Positions 1 through 50,300 of a stretch of 64,000 nt of DNA are shown here, one piece after another. This DNA is from Archangium sp. (GTDB taxonomy: Bacteria; Myxococcota; Myxococcia; Myxococcales; Myxococcaceae): NCBI GenBank assembly GCA_047600485.1, contig JASGKS010000001.1:6656259-6720258 (forward strand), read 5' to 3'. The notes beneath the pieces were generated by a model. The model was not told where the DNA came from. It did not search any database and was given only the letters and a program-made list of their open reading frames with translations. The number at the start of each line of letters is the position of its first letter. Position 1 is the first letter of the stretch. The position numbers and the translations under genes were made by a program.

Positions 1-487
1 CACCGTGCAGGATTACAGGTCGGCCATCATGCAATACGCGCAGGCGTCGCTGCGTGACGTCGCGGGCGGCATGAGCCTCGACGACCTGCTCTCGGAGCGT
101 GAAAAGATTCAGGAGCAGATCGCGCAGCACGTGGAGTCGCGTTCGACCGCGTGGGGCATTCACGTCGACGCGATTCGGTTGCTCGACATCGACATGCCGG
201 AAGACCTGAAGAAGATGATGTCGCGTCAGGCCTCGGCGGAACGCGAGAAGCGCGCCACCATCACCAAGGCCGAAGGTGACCGCGATGCGGCCGTGAATCT
301 CGCGGCGGCGGCGAAGACGATGTTCGAAGCGCCGGGCGCGATGCAGCTGCGCACGCTGCAGACGTTGGATGGGTTGGGCAGCTCGCCGTCGAACACCGTC
401 GTGCTCGCGGTCCCGGTCGAGGTGCTCGAGCTCGCGCGGCGGCTCGGCGTCACCGTCGAAGCGGGGCCGAGCGGGCGCGAGCGCTGA
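1..487 (+). CDS. SPFH/band-7 (stomatin/HflC-like) domain protein, 5' end truncated by the window edge
   Basis: ORF 5..487 stays open in frame back to nt 2. The translated C-terminal part (..AIMQYAQASLRDVAGGMSLDDLLSEREKIQEQI..IHVDAIRLLDIDMPEDL..QASAEREKRA..AEGDRDA..) resembles the coiled-coil tail of band-7/HflK/HflC proteins. GC3 is high. Confidence 0.6.
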   Translation, partial: TVQDYRSAIMQYAQASLRDVAGGMSLDDLLSEREKIQEQIAQHVESRSTAWGIHVDAIRLLDIDMPEDLKKMMSRQASAEREKRATITKAEGDRDAAVNLAAAAKTMFEAPGAMQLRTLQTLDGLGSSPSNTVVLAVPVEVLELARRLGVTVEAGPSGRER

Positions 488-496
488 CTTCGATTC

Positions 497-542
497 AGCC
501 CCTCACCCCGGCCCTCTCCCCGCTTCGCAGGGAGAGGGAGAC
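497..542. repeat. 45-nt GC-rich hairpin repeat (CCCTCTCCCC-loop-GGGAGAGGG family), copy 1
   Basis: cccctcaccccggccctctccccgcttcgcagggagagggag lies between the convergent stops of the SPFH gene and the 545..1009 gene. The 9-bp stem is ccctctccc/gggagaggg. Confidence 0.7.
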
Positions 543-544
543 AA

Positions 545-1009
545 CTACTTCCAGTCGACCGTAAGCGTCGCGCTGCCGTCGGCGTTCTTCACGACCTTCG
601 CCGCGTAGTCGCCGTTGCCGTTCACCTTCGCGGCGATGGCCTTCGCCACCTGCTCCGCGCTCTGACCGGCCTTGGTGCCGATGTCGGCGCAGTGCGCGAA
701 GTACCACTTGTTCTTCTCGGTGTAGCCGTTGGTGGTGTCGAACTTCGGCATCGCGTCTTTGTCGAACTCGATGCCGATGGAGCCGCCGAACTCCTCCATC
801 TTCTCGAAGTCGGACTGCTTCTCGCGCTGCGCGTGCGTGGAGCGCGTGTCACCCGGAATGCGCGTCTCGACGCCGTGCGCGGTGCCCTTGATGGTGAGCG
901 ACTGCTTCTTCGCGTCGTATTTCACCTTCAGGCCATCGTCGGAGTTCTTGATGTTCGACAACGTCACGTGAGCAGGAGTGCTGCGGCGAACAGGAGGCAT
1001 GCGCGGCAC
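545..1009 (-). CDS. hypothetical protein (Lys-rich, no recognisable family)
   Basis: 154-aa ORF with ordinary amino-acid composition. The overlapping plus-strand ORF (692..1237) is Arg-rich antisense noise. Start could be MPRM or MPPV. Confidence 0.45.
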   Translation of the reverse strand: MPRMPPVRRSTPAHVTLSNIKNSDDGLKVKYDAKKQSLTIKGTAHGVETRIPGDTRSTHAQREKQSDFEKMEEFGGSIGIEFDKDAMPKFDTTNGYTEKNKWYFAHCADIGTKAGQSAEQVAKAIAAKVNGNGDYAAKVVKNADGSATLTVDWK

Positions 1010-1018
1010 ACTGCCAGA

Positions 1019-2449
1019 TCAATTCGCCGCTTTGAACGACAGCGGGTACTTCACCGCCATCGGCTTGCCGTCAGACGGCTTCGGAAAGCGCATCGCGAGG
1101 AACGTCTTGCTCACGCATTCGGTGACCTTCGAGTCAGGAAAGCCACTGCCCTGCGCCGCGGTGACGCGACCATCGGCGCCGATGGTGAAGGCCATCGTCA
1201 GCGTGCCCTGCAGTTTCGGATTCTTGAGCAACGCTGATTCGTAGCAGGTGCGCGTGCGTCCGGTCGCCGAGCGGACCGTGGAGAGAATCGAGTCGCGATC
1301 GAGGCTGCCGCTCGGAGCTGGAGCCGCAGGCGCCTTCTTCTTCGCCGCGGGTCCAGCAGGCGCGGGAGGAGGAGACGCCACGGCCGCGACCGGCTCGGGC
1401 GGAAGATCAGCACACGCACGGTCCGGAAGCTGCGCGCAGAACGGCCGCATCACCGCCGCCGACAGCGCCGCGTCTTCCTCGTAGTTCGAGTCCTTCGCCG
1501 TCGGAGCGATGGCCGCGATTCCCTCGCAGAGCGTCTTGCCCGAATCGAGCTCGACCATGCGCAGCACGAGCTCGTCTCCGCGACGCACGCCGACGATTCC
1601 GTAGCCGCGTTCCATCTCGCGCTTCTCCAGCTTCGAGCCGGAGAGCGCGTTGAAGAATGTGTCGAGGAAGCTCGGGCGGTACACGAAGGAGTCGGTCGCG
1701 GTGTCGAGCTTCAGCGGAAATTCCGAGCTCAAGTACCCATCGCGCTTGCTCGACCACGACTTGCTCTGCGCTCCGTCGAGCAGCACCGAGATGGCGGGCT
1801 TCAACGAATCGACCGTGCAGTCGTTCCACCGATTTTCGATGTCTGTTTTGCCGAGGGCCGCGAGCGCCTTCGCTTCGGTCTCGTTGCGCTTCACCTGAAT
1901 TTCGTACGCCGCGTTCGCCGACGACATGAAGAGCAACGTCTTCGGCAGCACCAGCACGCTCGCCACGAGGAAGCCGACGAACATCGCCGCGAACATCCAG
2001 CCGATCATCTTGAAGCGTGCGCCGAAGCCGTCATCGGGAGCGAACACGCTCTCACCGTCGTAGCCGCGCGCGTGCGGGAAGCGCTGCTGAAACGGCGCGA
2101 GCGCTTCGGGCACGCTCTTCGCCCACGTCGCGATGCGGTACGTCTTGCCGTCGTCGGCGACGAGCACCACCGGGTAGTGCGTCACGATGCCTTGCACGTT
2201 CTGCACGATGGGGACCACCTGCGCGACGCGCTGCGGGTTGGCGAGCAGCGCGGCGAACTCGGCGGCTTTGACGCGCAGCCTCCAGATGGCGAAACCACCG
2301 CCCGCCATGAGCGCAGCACCGACTCCGGTGAAGGCGGGGAAGCCCGAGACGAGCCCACCGATGAACGGCATCGCGCCGAGCACGATGAGGGGAATCACCA
2401 ACACGCGCTGCGTCTTCCACGTTCGTTCGGCGAGAGCTTCGAGTGACAT
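1019..2449 (-). CDS. membrane protein with C-terminal AgmX/PglI-type (TonB-C-like) domain
   Basis: 476 aa with two predicted TM stretches near the N-terminus and again around residue 150. It has a Pro/Ala-rich linker (PPEPVAAVASPPPAPAGPAAKKKAPAAPAP). The C-terminal block DRDSILSTVRSATGRTRTCYESALLKNPKLQGTLTMAFTIGADGRVTAAQ..VKYPLSFKA matches the AgmX/PglI C-terminal domain that is common in Myxococcota. Confidence 0.6.
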   Translation of the reverse strand: MSLEALAERTWKTQRVLVIPLIVLGAMPFIGGLVSGFPAFTGVGAALMAGGGFAIWRLRVKAAEFAALLANPQRVAQVVPIVQNVQGIVTHYPVVLVADDGKTYRIATWAKSVPEALAPFQQRFPHARGYDGESVFAPDDGFGARFKMIGWMFAAMFVGFLVASVLVLPKTLLFMSSANAAYEIQVKRNETEAKALAALGKTDIENRWNDCTVDSLKPAISVLLDGAQSKSWSSKRDGYLSSEFPLKLDTATDSFVYRPSFLDTFFNALSGSKLEKREMERGYGIVGVRRGDELVLRMVELDSGKTLCEGIAAIAPTAKDSNYEEDAALSAAVMRPFCAQLPDRACADLPPEPVAAVASPPPAPAGPAAKKKAPAAPAPSGSLDRDSILSTVRSATGRTRTCYESALLKNPKLQGTLTMAFTIGADGRVTAAQGSGFPDSKVTECVSKTFLAMRFPKPSDGKPMAVKYPLSFKAAN

Positions 2450-2520
2450 GTGCGCGGCCTTGACCCTTCATCGAGAGCTGCGGTGACAGATATTCCGAAG
2501 CCCGGTGTTCAACGGGCACC

Positions 2521-3231
2521 ATGAACCACGCACTGCTGAAATCAGCCCTGATTCTGAGCCTTTCCACGCTGTCGGCCTGCCAGCTCGCGACCGGGAGCGG
2601 GAATGTCGTTTCTGAAAATCGCGAGGTCTCGTCGTTCCGCAAAGTCGATGTCGCCGACGGCATCACGCTGCACGCGACGACCGGTTCGCGCGCGCTGAAG
2701 CTGACCGCAGACGACAACCTGATGCCGCTGATTCAAACCTTCGTGACCGGCGACACGCTGCACATCCAGCTCAAGCCGACGACGGTCGCTCCGGTGTTGT
2801 CGACGTTGACGGCCGACGTCAGCAACGACCTGTTCGAGGGCCTCGACGCGTCGGGCGGCTGCCTGGTCGACGTCGCCGCGACCTCGACCGACGACTTTCC
2901 CATCACCGCGTCGGGCGGCAGCGACGTCACCATCACCGGGCTCGCGACCAACACCGTCACGATGGACGCGTCGGGTGGCAGCACCATCACCTTGAGCGGC
3001 ACGGCCGTGTCAGGCACCGCGTCGTCCTCGGGTGGCAGTGGCTTGAAGCTGCGCGGGCTGCCGATGCAGCGTCTGGCCGTCGACGCGTCGGGTGGAGCGA
3101 CCGTCGTGGCGCGCGTCTCGTCGTCGTTGACGGGCAGCGCTTCGGGTGGGAGCACGGTGTCCATCATCGGCACGCCGTCCAGCCGGCTCGACGTCTCGGG
3201 CGGCTCGCAGTTGAACCTCAACGTGGAGTGA
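2521..3231 (+). CDS. lipoprotein with head-GIN/DUF2807 (putative adhesin, LiaF-related) beta-rich repeats
   Basis: Signal peptide plus lipobox (LSTLSAC). Repeated ..ASGGS.V.I.G.. beta-strand motifs (DASGGSTITLSG, DASGGATVVARV, DVSGGSQLNLNV) are typical of DUF2807/DUF4097 envelope-stress proteins. The stop abuts the GTG start of the downstream sigma gene. Confidence 0.6.
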   Translation: MNHALLKSALILSLSTLSACQLATGSGNVVSENREVSSFRKVDVADGITLHATTGSRALKLTADDNLMPLIQTFVTGDTLHIQLKPTTVAPVLSTLTADVSNDLFEGLDASGGCLVDVAATSTDDFPITASGGSDVTITGLATNTVTMDASGGSTITLSGTAVSGTASSSGGSGLKLRGLPMQRLAVDASGGATVVARVSSSLTGSASGGSTVSIIGTPSSRLDVSGGSQLNLNVE

Positions 3232-3720
3232 GTGGTGAGCGTCGGCGTCGAGCAGCTGTACGCGAAGTACGGCCCGATGGTGCTGCGGCGCTGCCGCCAC
3301 CTCTTGCGCGATGAAGCGCGGGCGCTCGACGCGATGCAGGACGTCTTCGTGCTGGTGCTGCGCCATCAGCACCGGCTCGACGACGGGAGTGGCAGCTCGC
3401 TGTTGTTCCGCCTCGCGACGAACGTGTGCCTGAATCTGATGCGTGGCACCCGTCGCAAGGCCGAGGACGCCGATGACGAGAAGGTGCTCGCCATCGCGCA
3501 GGAGCTGGACGTCGAGAGTCGCGCGCAGGCGCGGAGCTTTTTGAATCGGTTGTTCGCGGATGAGCCCGAGACGACCGCCAGCATCGCCGTCATGCATTGG
3601 GTCGACGGCATGACCTGGGAAGAAGTGGCGCGTGAAATGAACATGTCGGTCAGCGGAGTGCGCAAGCGCGCCCGCGGAATCACCGAACGAGTGCAGGCCC
3701 TGCAGGAGAGACAGCCGTGA
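3232..3720 (+). CDS. ECF-family RNA polymerase sigma factor
   Basis: 162 aa. Region 2 (DAMQDVFVLVLRHQHRLD..LLFRLATNVCLNLMR) and region 4 HTH (MTWEEVAREMNMSVSGVRKRARG). GTG start immediately after the upstream stop. Overlaps the downstream gene by 4 nt. Confidence 0.8.
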   Translation: MVSVGVEQLYAKYGPMVLRRCRHLLRDEARALDAMQDVFVLVLRHQHRLDDGSGSSLLFRLATNVCLNLMRGTRRKAEDADDEKVLAIAQELDVESRAQARSFLNRLFADEPETTASIAVMHWVDGMTWEEVAREMNMSVSGVRKRARGITERVQALQERQP

Positions 3721-4451
3721 ACGCCATTCCAGACTGGAAACTCGAGCGCTACCGCTTGAAGGAATTGCCGGAGAGCGATGCGCGCCTGGTGTCGGCCGCG
3801 CTCGAGAACGACCCGGAGCTGCGCGCGCGGTTGGCGGCGCTGGAAGCCGATGACGCCGCGACGCTCGCTGCGCATGCGCCCGCGCGGGTTGCTGCTCGTA
3901 TCGAGTTGACGGCGCGTGACAGTGTTGCGCCGAAGCAGTCGCCGCTGCGCTGGTTGGTGCCGGTGATGGCCGTGGCCGCGGCGCTCGTGCTCGCCTTCGT
4001 GCTGCCGCGCAACACCGTGGACGACGACATCATCTTCAAGGGCGACGTCGCGCTGAAGCTGTTCCGTCTCGATGAAGGCTCTGAAGTTCCGGTGCGCCTC
4101 GTCGATGGAGCCCACGTGAAGTCGCACGATCTCGTTCAAGTCGCGTTCGACCTTCAGGGCGCGCAGTACGCGGTGGTGGTGAGCGTCGACGGAAGTGGCG
4201 GCGCGACGCTGCACTGGCCCACGTCGATCGCGTCGGACACGAAGGTGCCCGCGGCGTTCAAGGCGCTGCCGCAGAGCTTCGAGCTCGATGACGCTCCGGC
4301 GTTCGAGCGGTTCTTCCTGGTGGTGTCGAACGAGCCGCTCAACGCCGCGACGGTGCTCGACGACGCGAAGCGTGCGGGCCGCAACGGCACGTTGATCATT
4401 CCTCCTCGCGCGGCGCAGCGTTCACTCTTGCTCGACAAGGTGAACCCGTGA
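3717..4451 (+). CDS. membrane-spanning anti-sigma factor (cognate of the ECF sigma at 3232)
   Basis: 4-nt overlap with the sigma stop (GTGA). The cytoplasmic N-terminal segment precedes a single TM (WLVPVMAVAAALVLAFVLP) and an extracytoplasmic C-domain. This layout is typical of ECF anti-sigma factors. Confidence 0.6.
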   Translation: MNAIPDWKLERYRLKELPESDARLVSAALENDPELRARLAALEADDAATLAAHAPARVAARIELTARDSVAPKQSPLRWLVPVMAVAAALVLAFVLPRNTVDDDIIFKGDVALKLFRLDEGSEVPVRLVDGAHVKSHDLVQVAFDLQGAQYAVVVSVDGSGGATLHWPTSIASDTKVPAAFKALPQSFELDDAPAFERFFLVVSNEPLNAATVLDDAKRAGRNGTLIIPPRAAQRSLLLDKVNP

Positions 4452-4467
4452 GCGTCGGGAGTCTGTT

Positions 4468-4506
4468 TCACCCTCACCCCGACCCTCTCCCTTGCGGGAG
4501 AGGGGG
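4468..4506. repeat. 45-nt GC-rich hairpin repeat, copy 2 (3' arm forms the SD of the caspase gene)
   Basis: ccctcaccccgaccctctcccttgcgggagaggggga. ATG 4516 lies about 10 nt downstream. Confidence 0.7.
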
Positions 4507-4515
4507 ATCGTTTCC

Positions 4516-6609
4516 ATGAACCTCGCACTTGCTCTGAGTCTCCTCGTCGTTTCGCAAACGCAGGCGCCGACCACGCTGCGTCGCTTCGCGCTCGTCGCGG
4601 GCGCCAACGACGGCGGCAGCACGCGCGTGCAACTCCGCTACGCGAACTCCGACGCGCGCGCGATGACCCGCGTGCTCACCCAGCTCGGCGGAGTCGACGC
4701 CCGCGACGTGGTCACCGTCGAAGACCCCACGCCCGAACAGCTCACTGCGGCGCTGCAGCAACTCCAATCACGACTCACGGAAGCCAAGAGCGGCCCAGCA
4801 CGACTCGAGGTCTTCTTCTATTACTCCGGCCACAGCGACGAAGAGGGTCTGCTGCTGCGCGGAGAACGCCTCACCTATTCCGCGCTGCGAGCCAAGCTCG
4901 ACGCCCTGCCCGCCGAGGTGCGCATCGCGGTGCTCGACTCCTGCGCCTCGGGCGCCATGACCCTGCTCAAGGGCGGCGCCGCACGTCCCTCGTTCCTGGT
5001 CGACGCGGCCACCTCGCTCAGCGGTCACGCGTTCCTCACCAGCGCCTCGGCCGACGAAGCCGCGCAAGAATCGGAGCGGCTCAAAGCAAGCATCTTCACC
5101 CACTATTTCCTGTCTGGTTTGCGCGGGGCCGCCGACATGTCGCGCGACGGCCGCGTGACGCTCGCCGAGGCGTACCAGTACGCGTTCAACGAGACGCTCA
5201 CCCGCACCACCTCGACGCGCGCCGGCCCGCAGCGCCCGGGTTGGGACATTCAGCTCGTCGGCACCGGAGACCTGGTGCTCACCGACCTCCGCGCCGCTGA
5301 CGCGAAGCTGGTGCTCGACGCTCCGCTCTCAGGCCGCGTGCACGTGCTCGGCGCCAACGGCGGCCTGGTGGTCGAAGTCGCCAAGCCGCCCGGAAAACCC
5401 GTCGAGCTCGGCCTCGAAGCCGGCGAGTACCGCGTCATCGTCGACGACGGCGCGGGTCACGTCGGAGAGACGAAGCTCGCGCTCACCTCGCAGGGCACGC
5501 AGGTGCTCACGACTGGCTCGCTGCAAGCCACCACGCTCGAAGCCACGGTGCGCCGCGGTGACGAGGAGCGTCCGTACTTGCCGGTCGACGTCGCGTTCGT
5601 GCCGCCGCTGAGCATCTCGGGCGTGATGGGCACTCCGCCGCGCAGCAACTTCGCGTTCGGCATCATCGGCGTACGCTCGGGCGCGGTCGACGGTCTCACG
5701 CTCGGCAGCGTCGGCGCGTGGGTCGACGGTCCGTTGAACGGAGTCGGTATCGGCGGCGTGTTGCTCAAGAACGGCAACATGACGGGGCTGGGAATTTCCG
5801 GAGTGGTGCACGTCACCGCGGGCGACCTCACCGGCTGGAGCGCGTCGACCGTCAGCATCGTCAGCGGCGAGCTGCGCGGCCTGCAGACCAGCATGGTGAA
5901 CGTGACCGGCGGTCGTACCCTCGGTGCGCAGGCGGGCCTCGCCAACGTGGCCGCGGGCTTCACCGGCGTGCAGGCGAGTTTGCTCAACGTGTCGCCCATC
6001 GACTCCACCGGCGCGCAAATCGGCCTGCTCAACGTCGGCGGAGATCTCACCGGCGGCCAAATCGGTCTGCTCAACATCGCGCACAGCGTGAAAGGCACGC
6101 AGCTTGGTCTCTTGAACATCGCGGCCGAGAGCACTGCACCCATCGGGCTGTTGAGCGTGGTGACGAAGGGCAAGTTCAACGCCGCGGTCTGGGCGAACGA
6201 GACGTCGGTCATCAACCTCGGCCTCAAGCTCGGCAGCGCGAACGTGTACAGCTTCGCGGTCGGCGGCATCAACCCGCGCGGCACCAACGGTCGCGTGGTG
6301 TTGAGCGCGGGCCTGGGTCTCGGCGTCCGCGCGCGCTTCGGTGAGCGCTTCTACGGAGAGCTCGAGGGCACCTGCGAGAACCTGCTGCAGACCGGGCCGG
6401 TGTGGAGCAACTCCGGCCTGAGCACCGGCGCGCGGCTCAACGTCGGCTTCCAGCTCTTCGAGAAGCTCGCGGTGTTCGCCGGCCCGCAGTTCCACGTGCA
6501 CGTCGCGATGAACAACGCCGACGTGAAGACGCTGTCACCGTGGGGCTTCGACGTGTCGCCTTCCGTTCGCCTCGTTCCGGGTTTCGTGGTCGGCGTGCAG
6601 GTGCTGTGA
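4516..6609 (+). CDS. caspase-family (peptidase C14) protein with C-terminal Gly-rich repeat/beta region, secreted
   Basis: Signal peptide MNLALALSLLVVSQTQA. The caspase catalytic dyad context is present: FFYYSGHSDEEGLL (His) and IAVLDSCASGAM (Cys). It is followed by about 10 tandem repeats of G.Q.GLLNV/I-type motifs and a C-terminal beta-rich segment. ATG 4516 is preceded by a GGGGGA SD; the ORF-track start at 4492 is less likely. Confidence 0.75.
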   Translation: MNLALALSLLVVSQTQAPTTLRRFALVAGANDGGSTRVQLRYANSDARAMTRVLTQLGGVDARDVVTVEDPTPEQLTAALQQLQSRLTEAKSGPARLEVFFYYSGHSDEEGLLLRGERLTYSALRAKLDALPAEVRIAVLDSCASGAMTLLKGGAARPSFLVDAATSLSGHAFLTSASADEAAQESERLKASIFTHYFLSGLRGAADMSRDGRVTLAEAYQYAFNETLTRTTSTRAGPQRPGWDIQLVGTGDLVLTDLRAADAKLVLDAPLSGRVHVLGANGGLVVEVAKPPGKPVELGLEAGEYRVIVDDGAGHVGETKLALTSQGTQVLTTGSLQATTLEATVRRGDEERPYLPVDVAFVPPLSISGVMGTPPRSNFAFGIIGVRSGAVDGLTLGSVGAWVDGPLNGVGIGGVLLKNGNMTGLGISGVVHVTAGDLTGWSASTVSIVSGELRGLQTSMVNVTGGRTLGAQAGLANVAAGFTGVQASLLNVSPIDSTGAQIGLLNVGGDLTGGQIGLLNIAHSVKGTQLGLLNIAAESTAPIGLLSVVTKGKFNAAVWANETSVINLGLKLGSANVYSFAVGGINPRGTNGRVVLSAGLGLGVRARFGERFYGELEGTCENLLQTGPVWSNSGLSTGARLNVGFQLFEKLAVFAGPQFHVHVAMNNADVKTLSPWGFDVSPSVRLVPGFVVGVQVL

Positions 6610-7501: not shown

Positions 7502-10885
<3,384 letters not shown>

Positions 10886-10889
<4 letters not shown>

Positions 10890-23913: not shown

Positions 23914-24540
23914 TCAGAAGCGGAAGCCCATCGAGAACGCGAGGCGCGGCGAGCCGAAGTAGCTCGCCAGCAGCGCGAGCTCGAAGCCTGCACCGCCGTC
24001 GCCGAACAACATCGCGGCGCCGAGCCGCACGGTGGGCACGGGCGTGAGCGCGAAGTGCCGTTCGCGTTCGATGCGTGCGCTCGCCACTTCGAGCGTGACG
24101 AGCACGTCGATCCACCCCTGCAGCGCGCCGTCACCGACGCCCGCTCCGACGAAGGGAGAAGCGGTGACGAAGACCAGCGAGGTCACGGAATCGTCGCTGG
24201 TCTCGCTGGTCGCGAGCGGCCCGTTGCGAATCACGCTCACCTCGCGCGGGAAGAGCACCACCTCGGTGCCCACCTGCCCGCCGAGACGAAACGCGCCGAG
24301 CCGCTTCATCAGGTCGACGGTGCCGCCCATCACGAACTCCGAGCCCTCGAGCTGCACCGAGTTCTTTCCGGCGTAGACCTTCGTGCCCTCGAGCCAGCGG
24401 CCGCCGGTGGTGAGGTTGAGGCTGACGCGAAACGGTTCGTCGGCCATCGCGTAACTCGCGCTCATCGTCAGCAAGAGAAGCAGCAATCGCACGTGCCGCT
24501 CGACGACGGGCGTGCGCTCACGATTCACTGCGGCGCTCAC
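23914..24540 (-). CDS. small outer-membrane beta-barrel-like protein, hypothetical
   Basis: N-terminal signal (LLLLLLTMSASYAMA). Alternating hydrophobic beta-strand pattern. C-terminal aromatic end ..SMGFRF typical of OMPs. Confidence 0.4.
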   Translation of the reverse strand: MSAAVNRERTPVVERHVRLLLLLLTMSASYAMADEPFRVSLNLTTGGRWLEGTKVYAGKNSVQLEGSEFVMGGTVDLMKRLGAFRLGGQVGTEVVLFPREVSVIRNGPLATSETSDDSVTSLVFVTASPFVGAGVGDGALQGWIDVLVTLEVASARIERERHFALTPVPTVRLGAAMLFGDGGAGFELALLASYFGSPRLAFSMGFRF

Positions 24541-24541
24541 G

Positions 24542-25870
24542 ATGCGTCGGTGGCTCTCCTTATTAATAGGTGTGTGCGCGCTGGGTTTGACCTGGTGGTG
24601 GTTCGCGGGTTCTCACGCGCGCAGCCAGCCCGAAGCGCCTGAGCGCTACCTGTTCCGGAAGTTGATTCCGAACTGGGTGGTCGCGCGCTCGCGTTCGCCG
24701 GGCGTCGAGTCGTTCGAGGCGTTGCAGAAGGCCGCCGCGCCGTGGCCGCAGGTGAAGGAAGCCATCGACGAACTCGAGCCCGCGTGGCCCGAGGAAGAGC
24801 GCATCAAGACGGCGTGCAGAGATTTGAACGCTGCAGCGCGCGATGCGGGGCTCGAGTTCTGGGTCGACCCGATGTTCGTGAGCCGGAACAAGCCGATTCT
24901 CACGACGTACGAGGTGCTCGAGCGCGTGAAGTGGAGCACGGTCGATGGAGGCGTCACCACCGAAGCGATTCACGTTCGGCGACTCGACCGGCTCAATCTC
25001 GAGCTGGGTTTGCTGGGACACGCGAGCGGCTCGCAGCCGGCGATTCTGCGCGACCGCATGGAAGTGAGCGTCATCGACCGTCTGCGCGTCGACCCCGACG
25101 AGTACCCGAACGCGGTGGACGAGCTGGCGACGAAGCTGTGGCGCGCGGAGCTGTCGAAGCTGGTCGACGCGAAGGGCCTCGACGAAGCAGAGCGGCGCGT
25201 GAACCTGCGCGAGAAGTTGCTGCGGGAAATGGAGAAGCGGCTCAAAGGCGGGCAGGTGCACGTCGAGCGGCCGCAGCGGTTGGTGTTCGGCGATGAGTAC
25301 TTCGAGACGCTGGAGCCGTTCACCTCGACTCGGCGGCGTGGTGGTCCGCTGTTCCTCGCGTCGGACTTGCGAGCGCTGCAGCGAGCTGACGAAGCGCTGG
25401 GAGATTCGGCCGACTTGCCGACGCTGGTGCAGGTCATCGACCTCGAGGCGCGGGTGGTGGAAGCGCACGAGGTGCGACACGCGATTGATCAACGTGAGTT
25501 GCCGGTGCCGGCGTTGCTGCAGCGATTGGTGGGTGAAGGCGACTTGCGGTTCGGCCGCATGAGCGAGCGGGAACTGCGCGCGTTCATCGGGCAGCTGCAC
25601 GACTCGAAGCCGCCGGCGTGCCTGACGGTGATTGCGCTGGCCCAGCTCGCGCGCGGGACGAGGGCGTCGGCGACTCCGCATTTCTTCGCGGCGCACACGC
25701 TGCTGGCGACGCTGGCTGATGCAGAAGCCGAGCGCGGGCTCACACAGGAACAGGTGGTCGAAATTCTCGGAACGCTGTGCGCGCTGTCCGACGCGGAGCT
25801 GCGCGGCAAAGCAGAGGAAGCGAACGTCACGCTCTACGGCGAAGCGTTGCCGCAGATCGCGCCGAAGTGA
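24542..25870 (+). CDS. hypothetical protein (N-terminal TM anchor)
   Basis: ORF 24512..25870. A start at MRRWLSLLIGVCALGLTWWW (24542) avoids a divergent start overlap with the neighbouring gene. No family assigned. Confidence 0.5.
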   Translation: MRRWLSLLIGVCALGLTWWWFAGSHARSQPEAPERYLFRKLIPNWVVARSRSPGVESFEALQKAAAPWPQVKEAIDELEPAWPEEERIKTACRDLNAAARDAGLEFWVDPMFVSRNKPILTTYEVLERVKWSTVDGGVTTEAIHVRRLDRLNLELGLLGHASGSQPAILRDRMEVSVIDRLRVDPDEYPNAVDELATKLWRAELSKLVDAKGLDEAERRVNLREKLLREMEKRLKGGQVHVERPQRLVFGDEYFETLEPFTSTRRRGGPLFLASDLRALQRADEALGDSADLPTLVQVIDLEARVVEAHEVRHAIDQRELPVPALLQRLVGEGDLRFGRMSERELRAFIGQLHDSKPPACLTVIALAQLARGTRASATPHFFAAHTLLATLADAEAERGLTQEQVVEILGTLCALSDAELRGKAEEANVTLYGEALPQIAPK

Positions 25871-25876
25871 GTCGCG

Positions 25877-26164
25877 GTGTCAGCGATGGGTACACCTTTT
25901 CGCGAGGCCTTCGCAGGTCGCGTCACTGTCAGCGATGGGTACAGATCTGCGTGGCCGAGGGGCAACTCCGATTCTCGGCACGGCGCGCGCGACCTGAACT
26001 CACTCGCCCCAGCCTCAAGAGCAAAGTCGGTTTCACGTGTGCGTGCCCTGCCGAAAGTCGCACGTGCCTCTGACTCTCGAGCGAATTCACCTCAATCTGT
26101 ACCCATCGCTGACAGTGACGCGACCCGCGAAGGCCTCGCGAAAAGGTGTACCCATCGCTGACAG
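25877..26164. mobile_element. MITE-like element: 70-bp near-perfect terminal inverted repeats flanking a 148-bp core
   Basis: Left arm gtgtcagcgatgggtacaccttttcgcgaggccttcgcaggtcgcgtcactgtcagcgatgggtacagat. The right arm is its reverse complement with one or two mismatches. Each arm carries two copies of the 17-mer tgtcagcgatgggtaca. No ORF for a transposase. Confidence 0.4.
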
Positions 26165-26189: not shown

Positions 26190-26729
26190 ATGGAGCTCCA
26201 GACCGAACGCCTCATCCTTCGCGAACTGCGCGAAAGTGACTGGCCCGACGCTCTCGCGGTCGAAGGAGATCCCGCGGTCGTGCGCTGGCAGAGCTTCGAC
26301 GTCCTCACCGAGGAAAAGGCGAAATCGAACCTCGCAAGGAGCATCGCTGCCGCGAAGGTCGAACCCCGCGTCCTCTACGAGTTCGCGCTCACGCTCAAAG
26401 GCGACGACCGCTACCTCGGCCGCGTCGGCGTGCACGTGACTCGTCCCGAGCATCGCGAAGCGACCGTGTGGATCAGCCTGCATCGTTCACAGTGGAAACA
26501 CGGCTACGCACTCGAAGCGGGGCGCGCAGGCCTCGCGTTCGCGTTCGACGCGCTGAAGCTGCACCGCATCGGAGCCGACTGCGACCCGCGCAACGTCGCC
26601 TCAGCGCGCTTGATGGAACAGCTCGGCTTTCAGCGCGAAGGGCTGCAGCGTCAGAACTGGTGGCTCAAAGGCGAGTGGTGCGACTCGCTGCTGTTCGGCC
26701 TGCTCGCGTCGGAATGGCGCGCTCGCTAG
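26190..26729 (+). CDS. GNAT family N-acetyltransferase (RimJ/RimL-like)
   Basis: MELQTERLILRELRESDW..HGYALEAGRAGLAFAFDALKLHRIGADCDPRNVASARLMEQLGFQREG is GNAT motif A/B. The upstream GTG (26037) called by the ORF track lies inside an inverted-repeat element, so ATG 26190 is preferred. Confidence 0.75.
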   Translation: MELQTERLILRELRESDWPDALAVEGDPAVVRWQSFDVLTEEKAKSNLARSIAAAKVEPRVLYEFALTLKGDDRYLGRVGVHVTRPEHREATVWISLHRSQWKHGYALEAGRAGLAFAFDALKLHRIGADCDPRNVASARLMEQLGFQREGLQRQNWWLKGEWCDSLLFGLLASEWRAR

Positions 26730-26896
26730 CGCTTCGCCCGAAGCGAGTCGAACATGATTCCAGAGAGCTGCCCGAGCGGGATTGCGAGAATTCCGACCAC
26801 CGCGGTCCAGACCTGATGCGCCTGGGCGAACAGCAACACCGCGGCTGTGGCGAGCAGTGCCGTGACCACCAACTGGAGCAGTAGGTCGAATCGCAT
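26726..26896 (-). CDS. possible 56-aa small membrane protein (not in ORF track)
   Basis: ATG preceded by GGAGAGGG 5 nt upstream. Translation MRFDLLLQLVVTALLATAAVLLFAQAHQVWTAVVGILAIPLGQLSGIMFDSLRAKR predicts two hydrophobic helices. Mostly G/C-ending codons. Confidence 0.3.
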   Translation of the reverse strand: MRFDLLLQLVVTALLATAAVLLFAQAHQVWTAVVGILAIPLGQLSGIMFDSLRAKR

Positions 26897-26898
26897 CG

Positions 26899-26942
26899 GG
26901 CCCTCTCCCCGACCCTCTCCCCTATCGGGGGAGAGGGAGAGG
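26899..26942. repeat. 45-nt GC-rich hairpin repeat, copy 4 (perfect 10-bp stem)
   Basis: ccctctccccgaccctctcccctatcgggggagagggagagg. Lies between the acyl-CoA dehydrogenase stop and the small-ORF start on the minus strand. Confidence 0.7.
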
Positions 26943-26948
26943 CTTGCT

Positions 26949-34216: not shown

Positions 34217-34984
34217 TTGAAGCCTTCGGGCATGCGTGCGCGAAAACGAATTCTGGTCGTCGAAGACGAGCTTCCGATTCGGCGCGGCCTCGCGGACGCT
34301 TTGATTTTCGCGGGGTTTTCGCCGGTGGAAGCCGCCAGCTGCGACGAGGCACGCCGCGCCGTGGAGGCCGGCACCTTCGACCTCGCGCTGGTCGACCTGG
34401 TGCTCCCCGGCGGGAGCGGTCTGTTGGTCGTCGACCATGCGCGCAAGCTGCAACCGGGTCTGCCGATCATCGCCGTCACCGCGTTGGGCGCTGAAGAGGA
34501 GCGCGTCGATGGGCTGCAGCGCGGCGTCGATGACTACGTCGTGAAGCCCTTCAGCGTGCGTGAGTTGCTCGCGCGCATCACCGCGGTGCTCCGCCGCTCG
34601 GCCGAACGCAGCACCGCGCCGCGCGAGCTGGTGCTCGGAGAATTGACCATCGACCTCGCGCGCCGCGAAGTGCGCAGCGGAGACACCGTCACCTTGCTCT
34701 CTGAGCGTGAGGGCGAGCTGCTCACCTATCTCGTGCAGCACGCAGGACGTGCTGTCTCGCGCGACGAGTTGATGCAGCACGTGTGGCGGCTCGAGCCAGG
34801 TGCCGTCGCGACGCGCACCATCGACATGACCGTCTCGCGGCTGCGCGAGAAGACGGGCGGCGACGCGCTGATTCGCACCCTGCGCGGCAAAGGCTACGTG
34901 CTGAAAACCTCCGGCGCTGAAGCACGACTCGGCCCCTCACCCGACCTCTCCCCGTTTCACAGGGAGAGGAGAGAGACGAATTGA
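34217..34984 (+). CDS. OmpR/PhoB-family response regulator
   Basis: Receiver domain (RILVVEDELPIRRGL, LALVDLVLPGGSG, KPF) and winged-helix output (TRTIDMTVSRLREK..RTLRGKGYVL). Possible start at 34232. The 3' end runs through a 45-nt repeat element. Confidence 0.85.
   Translation: MKPSGMRARKRILVVEDELPIRRGLADALIFAGFSPVEAASCDEARRAVEAGTFDLALVDLVLPGGSGLLVVDHARKLQPGLPIIAVTALGAEEERVDGLQRGVDDYVVKPFSVRELLARITAVLRRSAERSTAPRELVLGELTIDLARREVRSGDTVTLLSEREGELLTYLVQHAGRAVSRDELMQHVWRLEPGAVATRTIDMTVSRLREKTGGDALIRTLRGKGYVLKTSGAEARLGPSPDLSPFHRERRETN
34931..34975. repeat. 45-nt GC-rich hairpin repeat, copy 5 (in the 3' end of the response-regulator gene, upstream of the histidine kinase TTG start)
   Basis: ggcccctcacccgacctctccccgtttcacagggagaggagagag. 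Confidence 0.7.
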
Positions 34985-44417: not shown

Positions 44418-47400
44418 TCACGGGTCGAACGTCACGAGGAAGGGAGTGAACACCGACGTCGGAGTGCCCGACGCCGGCAGCGTGCGCGCCGCGTTCACCA
44501 TGGTGCCAGCACCGTTGAAGTCGAGCACCGCGTGGAAGTGACTGGTGTCGTCACCGTCGTTCATCATGTTGTTGAAGTCGCTCTCTCCACCGCTCTGCCC
44601 GCCCGGGCCCTGCTGCCCGAGCAACGTGATGCTGCGGTGGAGTGGAACGGCCGTGAACGCCATGGTGTTCCCATTCGGGTTCCCGCTCGTGATGGTGATG
44701 TCGCTGAGCTGCGTCGCTGTGCCCAGCACCCCGCTGCCGCTGACGGGCAACGTCACCTTCGAGACGTTCATGGTGGCGATGGCGTCCGAAGTGCACACCG
44801 TCGGCGGAGTCGTCACGCCACCGCGACGGAACGTGCCGTTGCCGGAGTTGAAGCGCGCGCGCGTGATGCGCTTGCACATCACGTTGGGTTCGGTGGTGGT
44901 CGTGATCTGCGCGGTCATCAACAGGAACGCGTTGGTGCTCGCCGAGAGCGTCATGCCGTAGCTCGGGTTGCCCATGCCGCTGGTGGGAGCCGAGTTGGCG
45001 TGCACCACCGTCGAGCCCGCGAGGCTCACCACCTGGAAGCTCACGAAGCGGTTGGTGGCCGTACCGTTGGCGTCGAGCTGCACCTGCGTCGGGCTGTTCA
45101 GCTTGATGATGGGGAAGCCGTTGCCGTCGTTCTGGGCGCTCTCATAGGTGTTCGACATCAAGATGAACGAGTTGGCGAGCGGCGCCGAGCTCACCGTCTG
45201 CATCGCGGTCGAGCCGGTGAGGTTCACCCGGAAATGCTGCACGGTCGCTCCGAAGCCCGACGCGTAGTCGCGGCCGTACGACACCGTCTGCCACTTGATG
45301 TTCATCGTGCCGTTCGCCGTCTGCCGGTTGCACACCACGTTCACGCCGCTCGAGTTGTCGAGGTGGCACTCCACGTTCTGGTCACTCGCGTCGAGCGTGT
45401 TGCCCGCCTGCGAGGGCCGGCCCGTCGAGGTGATGATGAGGAACGTGCGCGAGATGTCGTCGTTCGGAATCGGCACGCCGATGGAGCACGGCAACGTCGC
45501 CACCGAAACCAGGTCACACGAGCCACGACGCACCAGCGGGTAGACGGTGAGCGAGAGCACTCCGTTGGTCGAGCCGGCCGTCGCGTCAGACGCGGTGAGG
45601 TTGGCGGTCGCCGCGGTGGTCGCTCCAGTCGGTGTCGCTGAGCGGCCGCGCACGTAGACGGTGGTCGAGTTCATGCCGTGCGGGATGGTGAGCGTCGCCG
45701 GAGCCGCCGCCGTGCAGTCACTCGACGTCGACAACGTGCCGCCCGTCGCCACGCTCGGCGTGACGATGGTGGTGCCGTTGTTCAGCACTGCGTTCGCGCC
45801 GTCGCGACGCTGAATCGTGTACTGCTGACACGCTCCGGCTTCGAGGTCGGCCGTGCCCGTCACCACGAAGGAACCGGCCGCTCCCGTCGGCGTCACCGTC
45901 TGGTTCGGAGCGGCGGTGAGCACGCCCGACGTCGCAGACACCGTCGACGAACCGCCGCCGGTCGCGAGCATGAAGAACTCGTTCGACGCGCTGAAGCCCG
46001 AGCTGATGGTGAAGTTCGAGATGACGCTGGTGCACGCCGCGTCGGAATAGAAGGTGAGGCCCGCTCCGGCCGTCGCGGTGGGCGTCACCACCGTGTCCGC
46101 CGCGGTCAGCGCGACGTTGTTCGCCGCATCGAGCGTCTGAATGATGCCCGCCGACACGCAACCAAAACGCGCCGGAGCCGCCGTCGGCGGCTGCTGCCAG
46201 TTGAGCTTCGCGACGGCGCCGGCCGTGACGTTCCACGACTGGTTGGCGCTCAACGTCGGCCCCGTGCCCGACGCCGTGATGGTGTGCATCGTCGCGGTCG
46301 CGGGGTTGAAGGTGAAGGTGCCGGTGGGGCTGGCCGAGGTGAGGTTGAAGGTGGTGCCGGACGGAAGACCGCACGCGGTGCGCGCGAAGAACGTCGCGGT
46401 CGCCGAGCTGCTGGTGGTGATGGTGTACGGCGACGACGGCAACACGGTGTTCATGAACGCGTCGCGCAGCTGCACCGTCAGCGACGCGCTGCACGAACCC
46501 GACGTCACCGAGCCCGCGGCGTTGCTGAAGAAGATTTCAATCGGCGCCGCGGCGTTGACGGTGGTCGTCGCGGTGCCGGTGAGCATCGGCGACATCGAGG
46601 TGGCGACGATGGTGGTCGTGGCCGGCGCCGTGGCCAGGGTCGCGCGCGCGAAGACCGGGTCGGTCGACACCGCGCTCCCGTTGGGGATGACCACGTTCGC
46701 GGTCGCCATCGCGCCGGCGCAGGTGGTCGGCGTCGACGAGAACGAGAAGCGCGGGCTGCTGAACGTCACCGACAAGGGCGGGTCAGCCACGATGTCGTTG
46801 GTGAAGTTGTCCTTGCGGTGCACGACGATGCTTTGCGCCGTGCAGGTGCCGGCGGTGTACATGGACGGCACGTTCTCGACGAGCAACACCGCGAGCGGGC
46901 CCGGGCTCACCGTCAGACCGAGCGTCAGCATCTGCCCCGCGAGCGTCAGCCCGAAGCTCGGCGTCGCGGCGATGGTCGAGCGCACGCTGAAGGTCTTCGA
47001 CGAATTGCCCGGAGTCACCGGCAAACTCGTCGTCTGCGCAGTGCCCGTGCAGTTGTTCGAGTCGAACGCCACGATGCTGCCGCTCGCGACCAGCGCCATG
47101 GTCGTGGTGCCACCGGGAATCGGCACGAGGTTGCCGAAGCTGTCACGCCGCTCGATGGTGACCGTCACGCAGGTGTTGGCCGCCACCGACGCCATGCCGC
47201 CGGTCGGCGCGACGAACGCGAGGTTCGGAGAAGCGGGGCTCACCGTGAGCGTCAATGTCGCCGTCTGTCCGCTCAGAATCGCAGACACGTTCTGCGGAGC
47301 AGGCCCGCCGGTCGGCGCCGAGGCGGTCGCCTTCACGTAGAAGGTCGCGCGCACGTCGTTCGCCGTGAGCGGGATGGTGGTGATGGCCGCCATCGAACAA

Positions 47401-50222
47401 CCCGAGTCAGGGTGAATGGTGGTGCCCGACGGCAGCGTGAAGGTGACGTTCTGCGCCGAGCCCAGCGGCACGTCGTTTCCGAACGAGTCCTTCCGCGCGA
47501 TGGTGACGGGCGTGCAGCCACCCGCGGTCTGCGCGGCAGACGCGGTGCCGAGCAACGTGTTGGGCGTCTCGAACACCAGCGTCGGCGTCCCCGGAGCGAC
47601 GGTGAAGTTGATGACCGCGTTGGTGGTCGCGACCGCGGCCTGCACCATGTGCATGCCCGCCGTCTTGGGGCGAATCGAGAAGCTGGTGGTGTGCGTGTTG
47701 TTCATCGTCACCGGCCCGCCCGCAGCGCCCATGCAGTTCTGCTGCGCGTAGAGGTCCCACTGCGTGCCGTTGGGGAAGGTGATGGACACGTTGTTGTTCC
47801 CGCTCGTCGGCGCGTTGTTGTTGAACATGTCGCGGCGCGAGAGCGTGACGTTCTGGCAGGCGCCGGCGGTGACGCTGGTGCTGCCTCCGGCGGGCACGTC
47901 GACGATGAGGCTCGGCATGCCCGGCGTCACCGTCAGCGTCGCGGGCGTCGAGGTGCTGAAGCCCGCCACCGTCGCGGTCAATTGATACGGAGTCACCGGC
48001 GACGTCACCGTGTGGCGCGCCGAGAAGCTCGCGCTGCCCGTCATCGTCGGCAACGGCAATGAGCTGCCGGTGCACGCGGGCGCAGTGCCCACCGTGACGC
48101 CTGCGGGGTTCGAGCCGACCGTCACCGTCTGCGCAGTCGTGAACACCGTCGGGTTGTCGAAGGTGTCGAGCACGTTCACCACGTACTGCGCGGCGGTGCA
48201 GCTGCCGGCCTGCGCGGTCTGCGTGTTGGGCACGCCGAAGCTCAACTTCGCCGGAATGTTCGGGAGAATCGAGTTGCCGGTGAACATCGTGGGCGGCGGG
48301 TTGAGCGTCGACGAGGCGCTGATGGTGAAGTTCGACACCGCGCGATTGCCGCGGAAATAGATCTGCGTCGAGGTCTGGCCCGAGGGCACGGTGACCACGC
48401 CGTTCAAGTCGGTGAGGCAGCCGGCGCCCGTATAGAAGTGGAACGACGAGTCAGCGCCGGGCGTGGTGAAGAGGTTGAAGTTGAGCGCCGTGGGGCTCGA
48501 CGCGAGGTTCATCGTGGTGTCGCGCAGCTCGATGGTGATGGGGCTCGCGCTGCACACGCCTGCGAGCGTGGTCTGCGGCTGACCGGTCCACGCGAAGGTC
48601 GAAGCAGGGCCCGACGAAATGATGATGTCCTGGGTGTCGGGCAGAATCGGCGGCACGGTGATGTTGGCCGCCGCCGTGATGCGCGTGCCGGTGCCGGTGC
48701 CCATCGAGCCCGCTTGAATGTTGATGGCGGTGGCGCCGGCCGGCAGCGTGAAGTCGGTGAGCGGCACCGTGCAGCCCGTGTCACTGGTCTGGAAGAAGCG
48801 CACCGGTGCCGCGCCCATCACCGACATCGTGAGTGGCAACGACATGTTCAGCGGCGAAGGGTTGTTGAACGAGTCCTGCAGCTCGACCACCAGCTGCGCG
48901 GTGCTGCAGAAGCTGGTGGTGAGCAGCGCGAGCGTGCCGTTGGTGAACTTCAAGTGGTGCGGCGTGCCCGGCATCACGTTGAAGTTCTGCATCGCTGCGG
49001 TGCCAATCGACGGAGCGGCGCGAATGGTGTGCGGCCCGGCGCGCTTGACGCTCAAGTACACGGTCGCGGTGCCCTGCCCCGGCTGCAGCATCACGGTCGG
49101 CGCCGGCGTCATGCAGTTCGCGTCGCCGTAGATCATCTCGTCGGCAGGCACGACCTCACCCGGCGTCGCGCTCAGGTTGATGGTGGTGGGCGCGTCGACC
49201 GCGGTCGGCAGATTTCCCATGTCGAAGAACTCGAGCGAGATGGGCGTCGCTCCGCACGTTCCTGCGTTGAGCGTGAGCGGCTGATTGGTGAAGCGGATGC
49301 CGGTGACCGGGCGCGGGTGCACTTCGACCACCGCGGTGCCCGGCGTCGGCACACGCGAGGCAGTAGCAGTGAAGGTGTTGCTGCCGAAAGCCGTCTCGTC
49401 GGCCTTCAAGAAGACGTCGATGAACGTGGTGTTGAAGAGAATCGGCAGCGACGTGAGCGCCATGTCGCCGCAGTTCGACGTGTTGTGCACCGTCACGCCG
49501 GTGATGGACGAAGTGAAGGTGACTGGCGTGTCGCGCACCGCGGTGCGCGGGCCCGAAGCGTTCGCCAGCTCGATGCGCACCGGCAGGCAGTCGCCGCGAT
49601 TCATGGTCGGCGCCATCGGCGACACCACCACCCGCTCGGCTTGATCGAGACAGAAGGTGGCGGAGCCGCACTCCGAGTCGTCGCAACCGAGGTTGGAGTC
49701 ACAGTCGGTGTCGACCTGGCTCGAGCACACCTGCGTCGCGCCCGGGAAGATGGTCGCGTCGTCGTCGCGGCAGTCGGGGCCGCCCTTCACCGCCGACACG
49801 AAGCCGTCGCGATCACCGTCGAGCGCCACGCCCGGAGGGTCGAGCGAGAGCTCGAAAGGCAACACACCCGACTCGGGGAACGTCGCCGGCTCGAGCCCGC
49901 CCTGCGCGTTCAACTGGAGCGTCGACTCGTCGTCGCACTTGCCGAGGTAACCGGTGACCTGCAGGTTGACGCTCGCCGGGAGGTCTTCGCCGCGCAGCAC
50001 GCCGAACACGAGGGTGTCGTCGGCCGGCCGCTTCACGATTTTGTACTTCTTCTCGACCGCGTCCTGCAGCACCGCGAGCTTGATGCAGTCGGCGCGCACC
50101 TTGGTGGTGCCCTGCGACTTGAGCGTGACGGTGACCTTGAGTGCGGCGTCGGGAGGCTTGCAGCCACTGAGCGCGGCGAGTGCCGCGAGGGTTGCCGGGA
50201 GGAACCCGAGTTGACGTCTCAT
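44418..50222 (-). CDS. giant (about 1934-aa) surface lipoprotein with MopE-type metal-binding motif and more than 12 bacterial Ig-like (Big_1/invasin-type) repeats
   Basis: ORF 44418..50984 is trimmed to the Met giving signal plus lipobox MRRQLGFLPATLAALAALSGC. The upstream 254 codons are Arg-rich antisense of the DUF218 gene. A DGDRDGF..GGPDCRDDDATIFPGATQVCSSQVDTDCDS MopE-like motif is present. The repeat core A/SG.C.....I.....D.F.N.... recurs about 12 times. The roughly 450-aa C-terminal domain is unrelated to the repeats. Confidence 0.7.
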   Translation of the reverse strand: MRRQLGFLPATLAALAALSGCKPPDAALKVTVTLKSQGTTKVRADCIKLAVLQDAVEKKYKIVKRPADDTLVFGVLRGEDLPASVNLQVTGYLGKCDDESTLQLNAQGGLEPATFPESGVLPFELSLDPPGVALDGDRDGFVSAVKGGPDCRDDDATIFPGATQVCSSQVDTDCDSNLGCDDSECGSATFCLDQAERVVVSPMAPTMNRGDCLPVRIELANASGPRTAVRDTPVTFTSSITGVTVHNTSNCGDMALTSLPILFNTTFIDVFLKADETAFGSNTFTATASRVPTPGTAVVEVHPRPVTGIRFTNQPLTLNAGTCGATPISLEFFDMGNLPTAVDAPTTINLSATPGEVVPADEMIYGDANCMTPAPTVMLQPGQGTATVYLSVKRAGPHTIRAAPSIGTAAMQNFNVMPGTPHHLKFTNGTLALLTTSFCSTAQLVVELQDSFNNPSPLNMSLPLTMSVMGAAPVRFFQTSDTGCTVPLTDFTLPAGATAINIQAGSMGTGTGTRITAAANITVPPILPDTQDIIISSGPASTFAWTGQPQTTLAGVCSASPITIELRDTTMNLASSPTALNFNLFTTPGADSSFHFYTGAGCLTDLNGVVTVPSGQTSTQIYFRGNRAVSNFTISASSTLNPPPTMFTGNSILPNIPAKLSFGVPNTQTAQAGSCTAAQYVVNVLDTFDNPTVFTTAQTVTVGSNPAGVTVGTAPACTGSSLPLPTMTGSASFSARHTVTSPVTPYQLTATVAGFSTSTPATLTVTPGMPSLIVDVPAGGSTSVTAGACQNVTLSRRDMFNNNAPTSGNNNVSITFPNGTQWDLYAQQNCMGAAGGPVTMNNTHTTSFSIRPKTAGMHMVQAAVATTNAVINFTVAPGTPTLVFETPNTLLGTASAAQTAGGCTPVTIARKDSFGNDVPLGSAQNVTFTLPSGTTIHPDSGCSMAAITTIPLTANDVRATFYVKATASAPTGGPAPQNVSAILSGQTATLTLTVSPASPNLAFVAPTGGMASVAANTCVTVTIERRDSFGNLVPIPGGTTTMALVASGSIVAFDSNNCTGTAQTTSLPVTPGNSSKTFSVRSTIAATPSFGLTLAGQMLTLGLTVSPGPLAVLLVENVPSMYTAGTCTAQSIVVHRKDNFTNDIVADPPLSVTFSSPRFSFSSTPTTCAGAMATANVVIPNGSAVSTDPVFARATLATAPATTTIVATSMSPMLTGTATTTVNAAAPIEIFFSNAAGSVTSGSCSASLTVQLRDAFMNTVLPSSPYTITTSSSATATFFARTACGLPSGTTFNLTSASPTGTFTFNPATATMHTITASGTGPTLSANQSWNVTAGAVAKLNWQQPPTAAPARFGCVSAGIIQTLDAANNVALTAADTVVTPTATAGAGLTFYSDAACTSVISNFTISSGFSASNEFFMLATGGGSSTVSATSGVLTAAPNQTVTPTGAAGSFVVTGTADLEAGACQQYTIQRRDGANAVLNNGTTIVTPSVATGGTLSTSSDCTAAAPATLTIPHGMNSTTVYVRGRSATPTGATTAATANLTASDATAGSTNGVLSLTVYPLVRRGSCDLVSVATLPCSIGVPIPNDDISRTFLIITSTGRPSQAGNTLDASDQNVECHLDNSSGVNVVCNRQTANGTMNIKWQTVSYGRDYASGFGATVQHFRVNLTGSTAMQTVSSAPLANSFILMSNTYESAQNDGNGFPIIKLNSPTQVQLDANGTATNRFVSFQVVSLAGSTVVHANSAPTSGMGNPSYGMTLSASTNAFLLMTAQITTTTEPNVMCKRITRARFNSGNGTFRRGGVTTPPTVCTSDAIATMNVSKVTLPVSGSGVLGTATQLSDITITSGNPNGNTMAFTAVPLHRSITLLGQQGPGGQSGGESDFNNMMNDGDDTSHFHAVLDFNGAGTMVNAARTLPASGTPTSVFTPFLVTFDP

Positions 50223-50300
50223 GTTCGAACCTGGAGCGCTCGTTGTGGGGGCCGACTTCAGGCGAGCGCGAGTACCTAAGAACTCTAGCGCAGCCGTGAT

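Follow-up and report, generated by a model that had tools for sequence, protein, structure and literature searches.

BoxC, also described as PIT (potential intrastrand triplex) and TMECO, is a three-box repeat of Escherichia coli, other Proteobacteria, and many further bacteria for which the pattern CCCTCNCCC-N3-6-GGGNGAGGG-N3-GGGNGAGGG, with at most one mismatched triplet, has been published (Holder et al. 2015, PMC4666352). According to that study, the E. coli copies are intergenic, show no trend in their distance to open reading frames (ORFs; 10-310 nucleotides, nt) and no tie to gene function, and are unusually variable between strains. Earlier E. coli tests, as cited there, found PIT elements to have neither promoter nor terminator activity and no in vivo effect, and our literature search for later BoxC/PIT work returned Holder et al. 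2015 only. Here, we analyze a 64-kb stretch of DNA (the window; ~67% G+C) from the 9.42-Mb contig of a Myxococcota metagenome-assembled genome (MAG) labelled Archangium sp., in which a preliminary description had noticed five repeated hairpins and proposed that four of them may sequester the Shine-Dalgarno (SD) sequences of functionally unrelated genes. On sequence comparison, the five hairpins are copies of the dispersed BoxC/PIT/TMECO repeat. With a probability of roughly 0.7, we favor the reading that a dispersed BoxC-type repeat has come to lie at tight gene junctions, where its G-rich box (G-box) would act as an SD and its hairpin would damp or couple translation, without any dedicated regulon.

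The window contains exactly five copies of an element of ~45 nt and three boxes, and nhmmer, run with a profile from 176 copies found elsewhere, detected no further ones there. The element follows the plan CCCTC(A/T)CCCC - GA - CCCTCTCCCC - loop of 4-8 nt - GGGAGAGGG(AGA). Its 22-nt two-box pattern matches four times in the window and never in shuffles; the 9-mer GGGAGAGGG taken alone is not enriched in the window (22 occurrences vs 16 expected). The family link was first found by a full-text search with two 9-mers of the element, and copy 2 (4468..4508; nhmmer E 7.8e-8) displays it most clearly. This copy has the sequence TTCA-CCCTCACCCC-GA-CCCTCTCCC-TTGC-GGGAGAGGGGGATCG, and its reverse strand, CCCTCTCCC-GCAA-GGGAGAGGG-TCG-GGGTGAGGG, is an exact fit to the TMECO pattern, with a core, GGGAGAGGGTCGGGGTGAGGG (the G-box), that matches E. 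coli copy no. 20 without a difference. Copies 1 and 4 agree with the pattern except that loop 1 is 9 and 7 nt long, respectively, and copies 3 and 5 are degenerate. As a query, 43 nt of copy 2 find full-length matches of 84-86% identity in 5090 of the 5426 complete genomes of E. coli. The median genome has 8 such places, and the 10 matches listed coincide with no annotated feature. Aligned by eye, copy 2 (4468-4510) and the E. coli hrpB-mrcB copies (398-442 of locus L213; loci outside the window carry L numbers) are identical into the flanks, with TTCA on the left and GGATCG on the right. We note that these hosts belong to different phyla, which prompts one to ask by what means the sequence is maintained or spreads. 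The exact 22-mer is also present in more than 120 metagenome contigs spanning 33-75% G+C, where inverted pairs are frequent.

All five copies in the window lie on the plus strand, whatever the direction of the neighboring genes, and relative to transcription both orientations occur, two of each. Agreement of strand in five of five copies has a chance probability of ~0.06, and orientations are mixed in relatives. For copies 3 and 4, the minus-strand RNA carries the boxes in the order C-box, G-box, G-box. We also observed a variant behind a dehydrogenase stop codon in L008 (11845-11885) with all three boxes altered (CCCTGTCCC / GGGACAGGG / GGGGCAGGG) and hairpin arms that still pair; judged from its sequence, it could be a separate subfamily or a case of compensatory change.

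Genes were called from codon-position G+C together with Pfam, which leaves three copies intergenic and two (copies 3 and 5) overlapped by ORFs. The preliminary description had put four of the five hairpins at an SD. Three of them, copies 2, 4, and 5, do occupy this position, 4-10 nt ahead of the well-supported starts of a caspase, a 56-amino-acid (aa) gene, and a histidine kinase, whereas copy 3 lies inside Kelch coding sequence; the positions in that description were largely right, and all three starts are supported by orthologues or a homologue. Copy 2 is located between the stop codon at 4451 of a 244-aa gene, the final member of a DUF2807 and extracytoplasmic function (ECF) sigma factor cluster, and the caspase ATG at 4516. 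Its G-box ends at 4507, and 19 nt separate it from the preceding stop. The caspase ATG aligns with an ATG in three orthologues, and a 697-aa NCBI protein is 100% identical to the caspase. Copy 4 (26900..26943; nhmmer 26901-26940, E 2.4e-8), which is read on the minus strand, fills the junction between an acyl-CoA dehydrogenase gene and the 56-aa gene: it begins 5 nt past the dehydrogenase stop at 26949 and ends 4 nt before the ATG at 26896. The 56-aa ORF has a homologue, also of 56 aa, with 64% identity (E 5e-13), and because this homologue occupies the same place behind the acyl-CoA dehydrogenase gene of a relative, the comparison identifies the ORF as a real gene. We note that the pair (26726-26896 (-) in the window and 1744-1914 in L214) represents a conserved gene for a membrane protein with two helices, straight after the dehydrogenase gene, with one homologue cluster only among 1.8 billion representatives.

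Two copies are absorbed into coding sequence. Copy 5 (34934..34976), which nhmmer recognizes weakly (34945-34972, E 0.13), is contained in the 3' extension of an OmpR-type response-regulator ORF (34217..34984) that reads through the whole copy and whose TGA overlaps the TTG start of the kinase (TTGA). The purine tract of copy 5 ends at 34976, 4 nt before this TTG at 34981, and the TTG aligns with ATG and GTG in orthologues (MRAW.. and VKTW..). With its own stop codon lost, the response regulator carries a repeat-encoded C-terminal tail of 20 aa, LGPSPDLSPFHRERRETN (34915-34984), that its orthologues, of 230-231 aa, do not have; a 250-aa NCBI protein, 100% identical across 98% of the ORF, has sufficient length to contain it. 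Copy 3 (10843..10883; nhmmer E 4.6e-6) is also read on the minus strand and lies 5 nt past the stop codon, at 10886, of a Castor/Pollux-type channel gene. The TGA of the channel gene and the Kelch ATG at 10889 form an ATGA overlap. The copy had been described as spanning the Kelch start, but it comes after that ATG, where it makes up about codons 3-16 of the Kelch ORF as part of the signal-peptide n-region, and from copy 3 to the signal-peptide core there is no in-frame ATG, GTG, or TTG. Copy 1 (497..540; nhmmer E 1.7e-7) has no start codon nearby and is bounded by two convergent stops, at 487 for an SPFH/Band_7 gene and at 545 for a 154-aa gene (545..1009(-)).

From computed Watson-Crick folding, each copy is predicted to form a hairpin of 9-12 G-C-rich base pairs, and the isolated stem-loops of the copy-1 element have predicted energies of about -21 to -26 kcal/mol. 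Since any shuffled sequence rich in G+C folds well, the z-scores of whole segments relative to shuffles are weak (-0.7 to -1.9), and the argument rests on the specific stems. Pairing of the SD-like arm with the upstream arm had been proposed for the start-adjacent copies. Predicted folding bears this out for copies 2 and 5, in which the GGAG-rich box beside the start codon is base-paired within a stable hairpin (mean probability of being unpaired at 37 °C, 0.06 and 0.27, respectively), but not for copy 4, whose start-proximal box is the third one and lies outside the main stem. The paired boxes at the caspase and kinase starts favor the idea that the elements are dedicated cis-regulators sequestering the SDs of unrelated genes, in a distributed post-transcriptional regulon that possibly responds to temperature. 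ROSE and fourU thermometers resemble the elements in that a hairpin pairs with the purine-rich ribosome-binding region, but those thermometers are weak, mismatched stems that melt at 30-42 °C, whereas the stems here comprise 9-12 uninterrupted G-C-rich pairs. In the predicted folds, the SD pairing of no copy opens between 25 and 42 °C, and the unpaired probability is still low at 90 °C: for the box of copy 2, the mean goes from 0.069 at 25 °C to 0.061 at 42 °C and reaches 0.19 at 90 °C, with similar behavior in the other copies. Because the modeled pairing is flat over the physiological range and persists at 90 °C, the stems, as predicted, cannot be physiological thermosensors, and the thermometer analogy falls. 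An Rfam scan of the whole window, in which no family reached its gathering score, likewise speaks against a known regulatory RNA of this kind.

Comparison with orthologous junctions also bears on the regulon idea. The nearest relative, represented by two Joint Genome Institute (JGI) samples, has 86-89% protein identity, and at all three SD-range junctions, it either lacks the element or retains it in decayed form. At the copy 2 site, it has a decayed remnant (L208), and the more distant L210 and L211 have an ATGA overlap without the element. Because the more distant relatives have this overlap, the comparison points to a gain of the element at the copy 2 site; at some sites, the direction, gain or loss, is one that we infer. 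The copy 4 site is empty in the nearest relative (L214/L215), where the 56-aa gene starts with GTG after a 14-nt spacer, TCGAAGGGCTCGGC, and at the copy 5 site, the nearest relative (L202) has a GTGA overlap and no element; a 34-nt spacer at this site in L201 may contain a relic of one. The copy 1 site is empty as well (L208), with the two stop codons only 3 nt apart. No clear target-site duplication is seen at the filled and empty sites, with suggestive ATGA / ATGAG repeats at two of them and nothing at copies 1 and 4. The repeats around the insert read CCGTGA...CCATGA (window 4444-4519), CAATGA...CCATGA (L208 9940-10004), and ATGAG...ATGAG (L201 10690-10735); they may reflect a target duplication, in too few cases for a claim.

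Copy 3 is the only conserved copy. L203, L207, and, with an internal deletion, L206 all carry it in frame behind the ATGA overlap, and the peptide SLSPxGERVGER is found in the N-termini of at least eight Kelch orthologues. Because the frame and the peptide are kept across N-termini of differing length, the alignments argue that copy 3 is translated in these proteins. The element is also found past the acyl-CoA dehydrogenase stop in L005, L007, and L008, where the downstream genes differ or converge, and this variety associates the dehydrogenase copy with the 3' end of the preceding gene and not with any start. Use of the dehydrogenase neighborhood to locate orthologous junctions of the other copies was dropped, as gene order there is too variable.

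To place the five copies within the family, we took a census of the surroundings of 159 copies from outside the window, located on metagenome contigs of at least 60% G+C that were chosen by the exact 22-mer and are taxonomically mixed. The start was counted as the first possible one after the element, a choice that shortens distances and so favors the SD hypothesis, and the null placed insertions uniformly in the gaps without an element on these contigs. Even so, a start codon lies 3-14 nt away in just 9 of the 159 copies, compared with 8.5-12% expected, which is no enrichment. In loci of close relatives, ~10 non-orthologous copies have a start within 14 nt in no case and at 18-21 nt in three, and a stop within 19 nt in five. 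In these samples, the clustering at start codons that a regulon would lead one to expect does not appear. Stop codons behave differently: one lies 3-14 nt away in 27 of the 159 copies, where 7.6-11% would be expected (p 7e-5 to 0.017), and the excess comes largely from the side on which the mRNA first reaches the hairpin. The census also shows an excess of convergent gaps (18/63 element gaps vs 37/263 control gaps; odds ratio 2.4, p 0.009), and co-directional gaps show no orientation bias (27 vs 29).

Several points weigh against the reading that we favor. The census gene caller is our own, based on G+C at third codon positions (GC3), and its start codons are uncertain. In the window, moreover, three of five copies fall in the SD range, which is more than the broad null (p 0.015) and more than the metagenome sample (p 0.003) would give; because both nulls are exceeded, there may be a lineage-specific preference or selection for start proximity. 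The retention of copy 3 at one junction in several species, in turn, fits a function better than it fits junk. The excess over the broad null is likewise an argument for the SD-sequestering regulon. Set against it are the temperature-insensitive folds, the missing or decayed elements at the nearest relative's junctions, the rarity of SD-range copies in the metagenome sample and their absence from the relatives' loci, the occurrence of both orientations relative to transcription, and the E. coli family, which has neither an ORF-distance trend nor a link to gene function (PMC4666352). These data do not support a dedicated SD-sequestering regulon, which we regard as very improbable; what had been read as a distributed post-transcriptional regulon is a cosmopolitan repeat.

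The placement of copies behind stop codons suggests a different role, in which the hairpin acts on the upstream gene in the manner of repetitive extragenic palindromic (REP) sequences, stalling the terminating ribosome or protecting the 3' end of the mRNA when it lies within ~15 nt past the stop. For copies 1, 3, and 4, the hairpin begins 5-12 nt past a stop codon, the stop of E. coli hrpB is 13 nt ahead of a copy, and the family-wide excess of nearby stops and of convergent gaps points the same way. REPs no more than 15 nt from a stop codon stall ribosomes, according to Liang et al. 2015 as cited in PMC12306157. However, the case is one of analogy, and copies 2, at 19 nt, and 5, inside an ORF, do not fit it. 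There is no T-run after the stems on either strand of the copies, a terminator scan of 300-4700 called neither copy 1 nor copy 2, and the E. coli PIT tests cited in PMC4666352 gave no terminator activity and no in vivo effect. Taken together, we consider a REP-like action, by this analogy, possible but not probable.

A further explanation would place the function in the DNA itself, with the element forming an intrastrand triplex or another non-B-DNA motif that promotes local rearrangement and with any effect on translation being incidental. Holder et al. associated TMECO loci with higher local variability between E. coli strains and observed triplex formation by an oligonucleotide in vitro, but duplex DNA and in vivo footprints gave them no triplex signal (PMC4666352). 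The patchy presence of the element in close relatives, the partial deletions in L206 and L208, and the different genes that follow the dehydrogenase copy are in line with such an activity. Gene order past the dehydrogenase, however, varies also in relatives without the element, and a DNA-level action leaves the placement right at stop codons unexplained. We therefore judge this explanation unlikely.

In the reading that we favor, copies of a short, widely dispersed BoxC-type repeat lie directly behind stop codons at junctions that are spacer-poor in relatives. As the empty junctions of relatives are 4-nt overlaps or 3-14-nt spacers, the far end of an inserted element must abut the next start, and the start proximity of copies in the window would arise because these junctions are essentially spacer-free in relatives. 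Since a GGAG-rich box terminates the element on each strand, it is plausible that a copy supplies, in either orientation, a usable SD in place of the displaced one, and the GGAG-rich end probably serves as a ribosome-binding site. The very stable hairpin probably reduces translation of the downstream gene by constitutively hindering independent initiation, or couples it to upstream translation by making it dependent on ribosomes from the upstream gene. Copy 5 would be the strongest case, with a regulator that reads through the hairpin to TTGA in what looks like restored coupling. One can go further and suppose that BoxC-type elements integrate preferentially at the stop/start junctions of packed operons, perhaps duplicating ATGA, and that they act as a portable cassette of SD and hairpin that re-creates translational coupling and can subsequently become part of a gene, the signal-peptide n-region of the Kelch orthologues being an example. 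We offer this extension as a speculation that is more probably wrong than right by a wide measure.

These findings turn an apparent regulon into a known repeat family without an assigned function, and they broaden the range of BoxC/PIT to include a myxobacterial genome and environmental contigs that differ widely in base composition. The 30-year-old question of the role of BoxC/PIT could become more testable through the placement behind stops, the spacer-free junctions, and the in-frame absorption described here. The process to which they point is translation termination and re-initiation, rather than promoters or terminators.

Elsewhere in the window, we observed a 69-nt inverted repeat (25878-25946 and 26095-26163) with arms that are 99% complementary and 148 nt apart. 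It looks like a small miniature inverted-repeat transposable element (MITE) and occupies a 316-nt gap between a gene at 24512..25870 and a GNAT acetyltransferase gene. A 2188-aa ORF (44418-50984 (-)) has an atypical codon-position G+C profile and overlaps several high-scoring plus-strand ORFs.

Among known systems, BoxC/PIT/TMECO (Bachellier et al. 1990s; Hoyne and Maher 2000-2002; Holder et al. 2015, PMC4666352) matches the element of the window in its three-box sequence, with identical cores, and in being present in both orientations and patchy among close relatives; with three of five copies in 64 kb between genes, it may also be dispersed and mostly intergenic. The copies described here differ from those of E. 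coli in their host, a Myxococcota MAG, and in loop 1, which is often 7-9 nt long vs the published 3-6 nt. Whereas E. coli BoxC is described as always intergenic, two copies in the window are inside ORFs, and all five occupy junctions whose length in relatives is close to zero. REPs and bacterial interspersed mosaic elements (BIMEs) are likewise short G+C-rich palindromes that are often found just past stops or between convergent genes, sometimes as inverted pairs, and are co-transcribed into stable hairpins. Their consensus, however, is by inspection unrelated, and the element of the window has a third box outside the hairpin. Rickettsia palindromic elements and similar repeats are inserted in frame within genes, and copies 3 and 5 resemble them as short palindromic repeats that are tolerated in coding sequence and add a peptide to the protein. 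The sequences are unrelated, and unlike the Rickettsia elements, the insertions reported here are at the extreme N- or C-terminus, beside a stop/start overlap.

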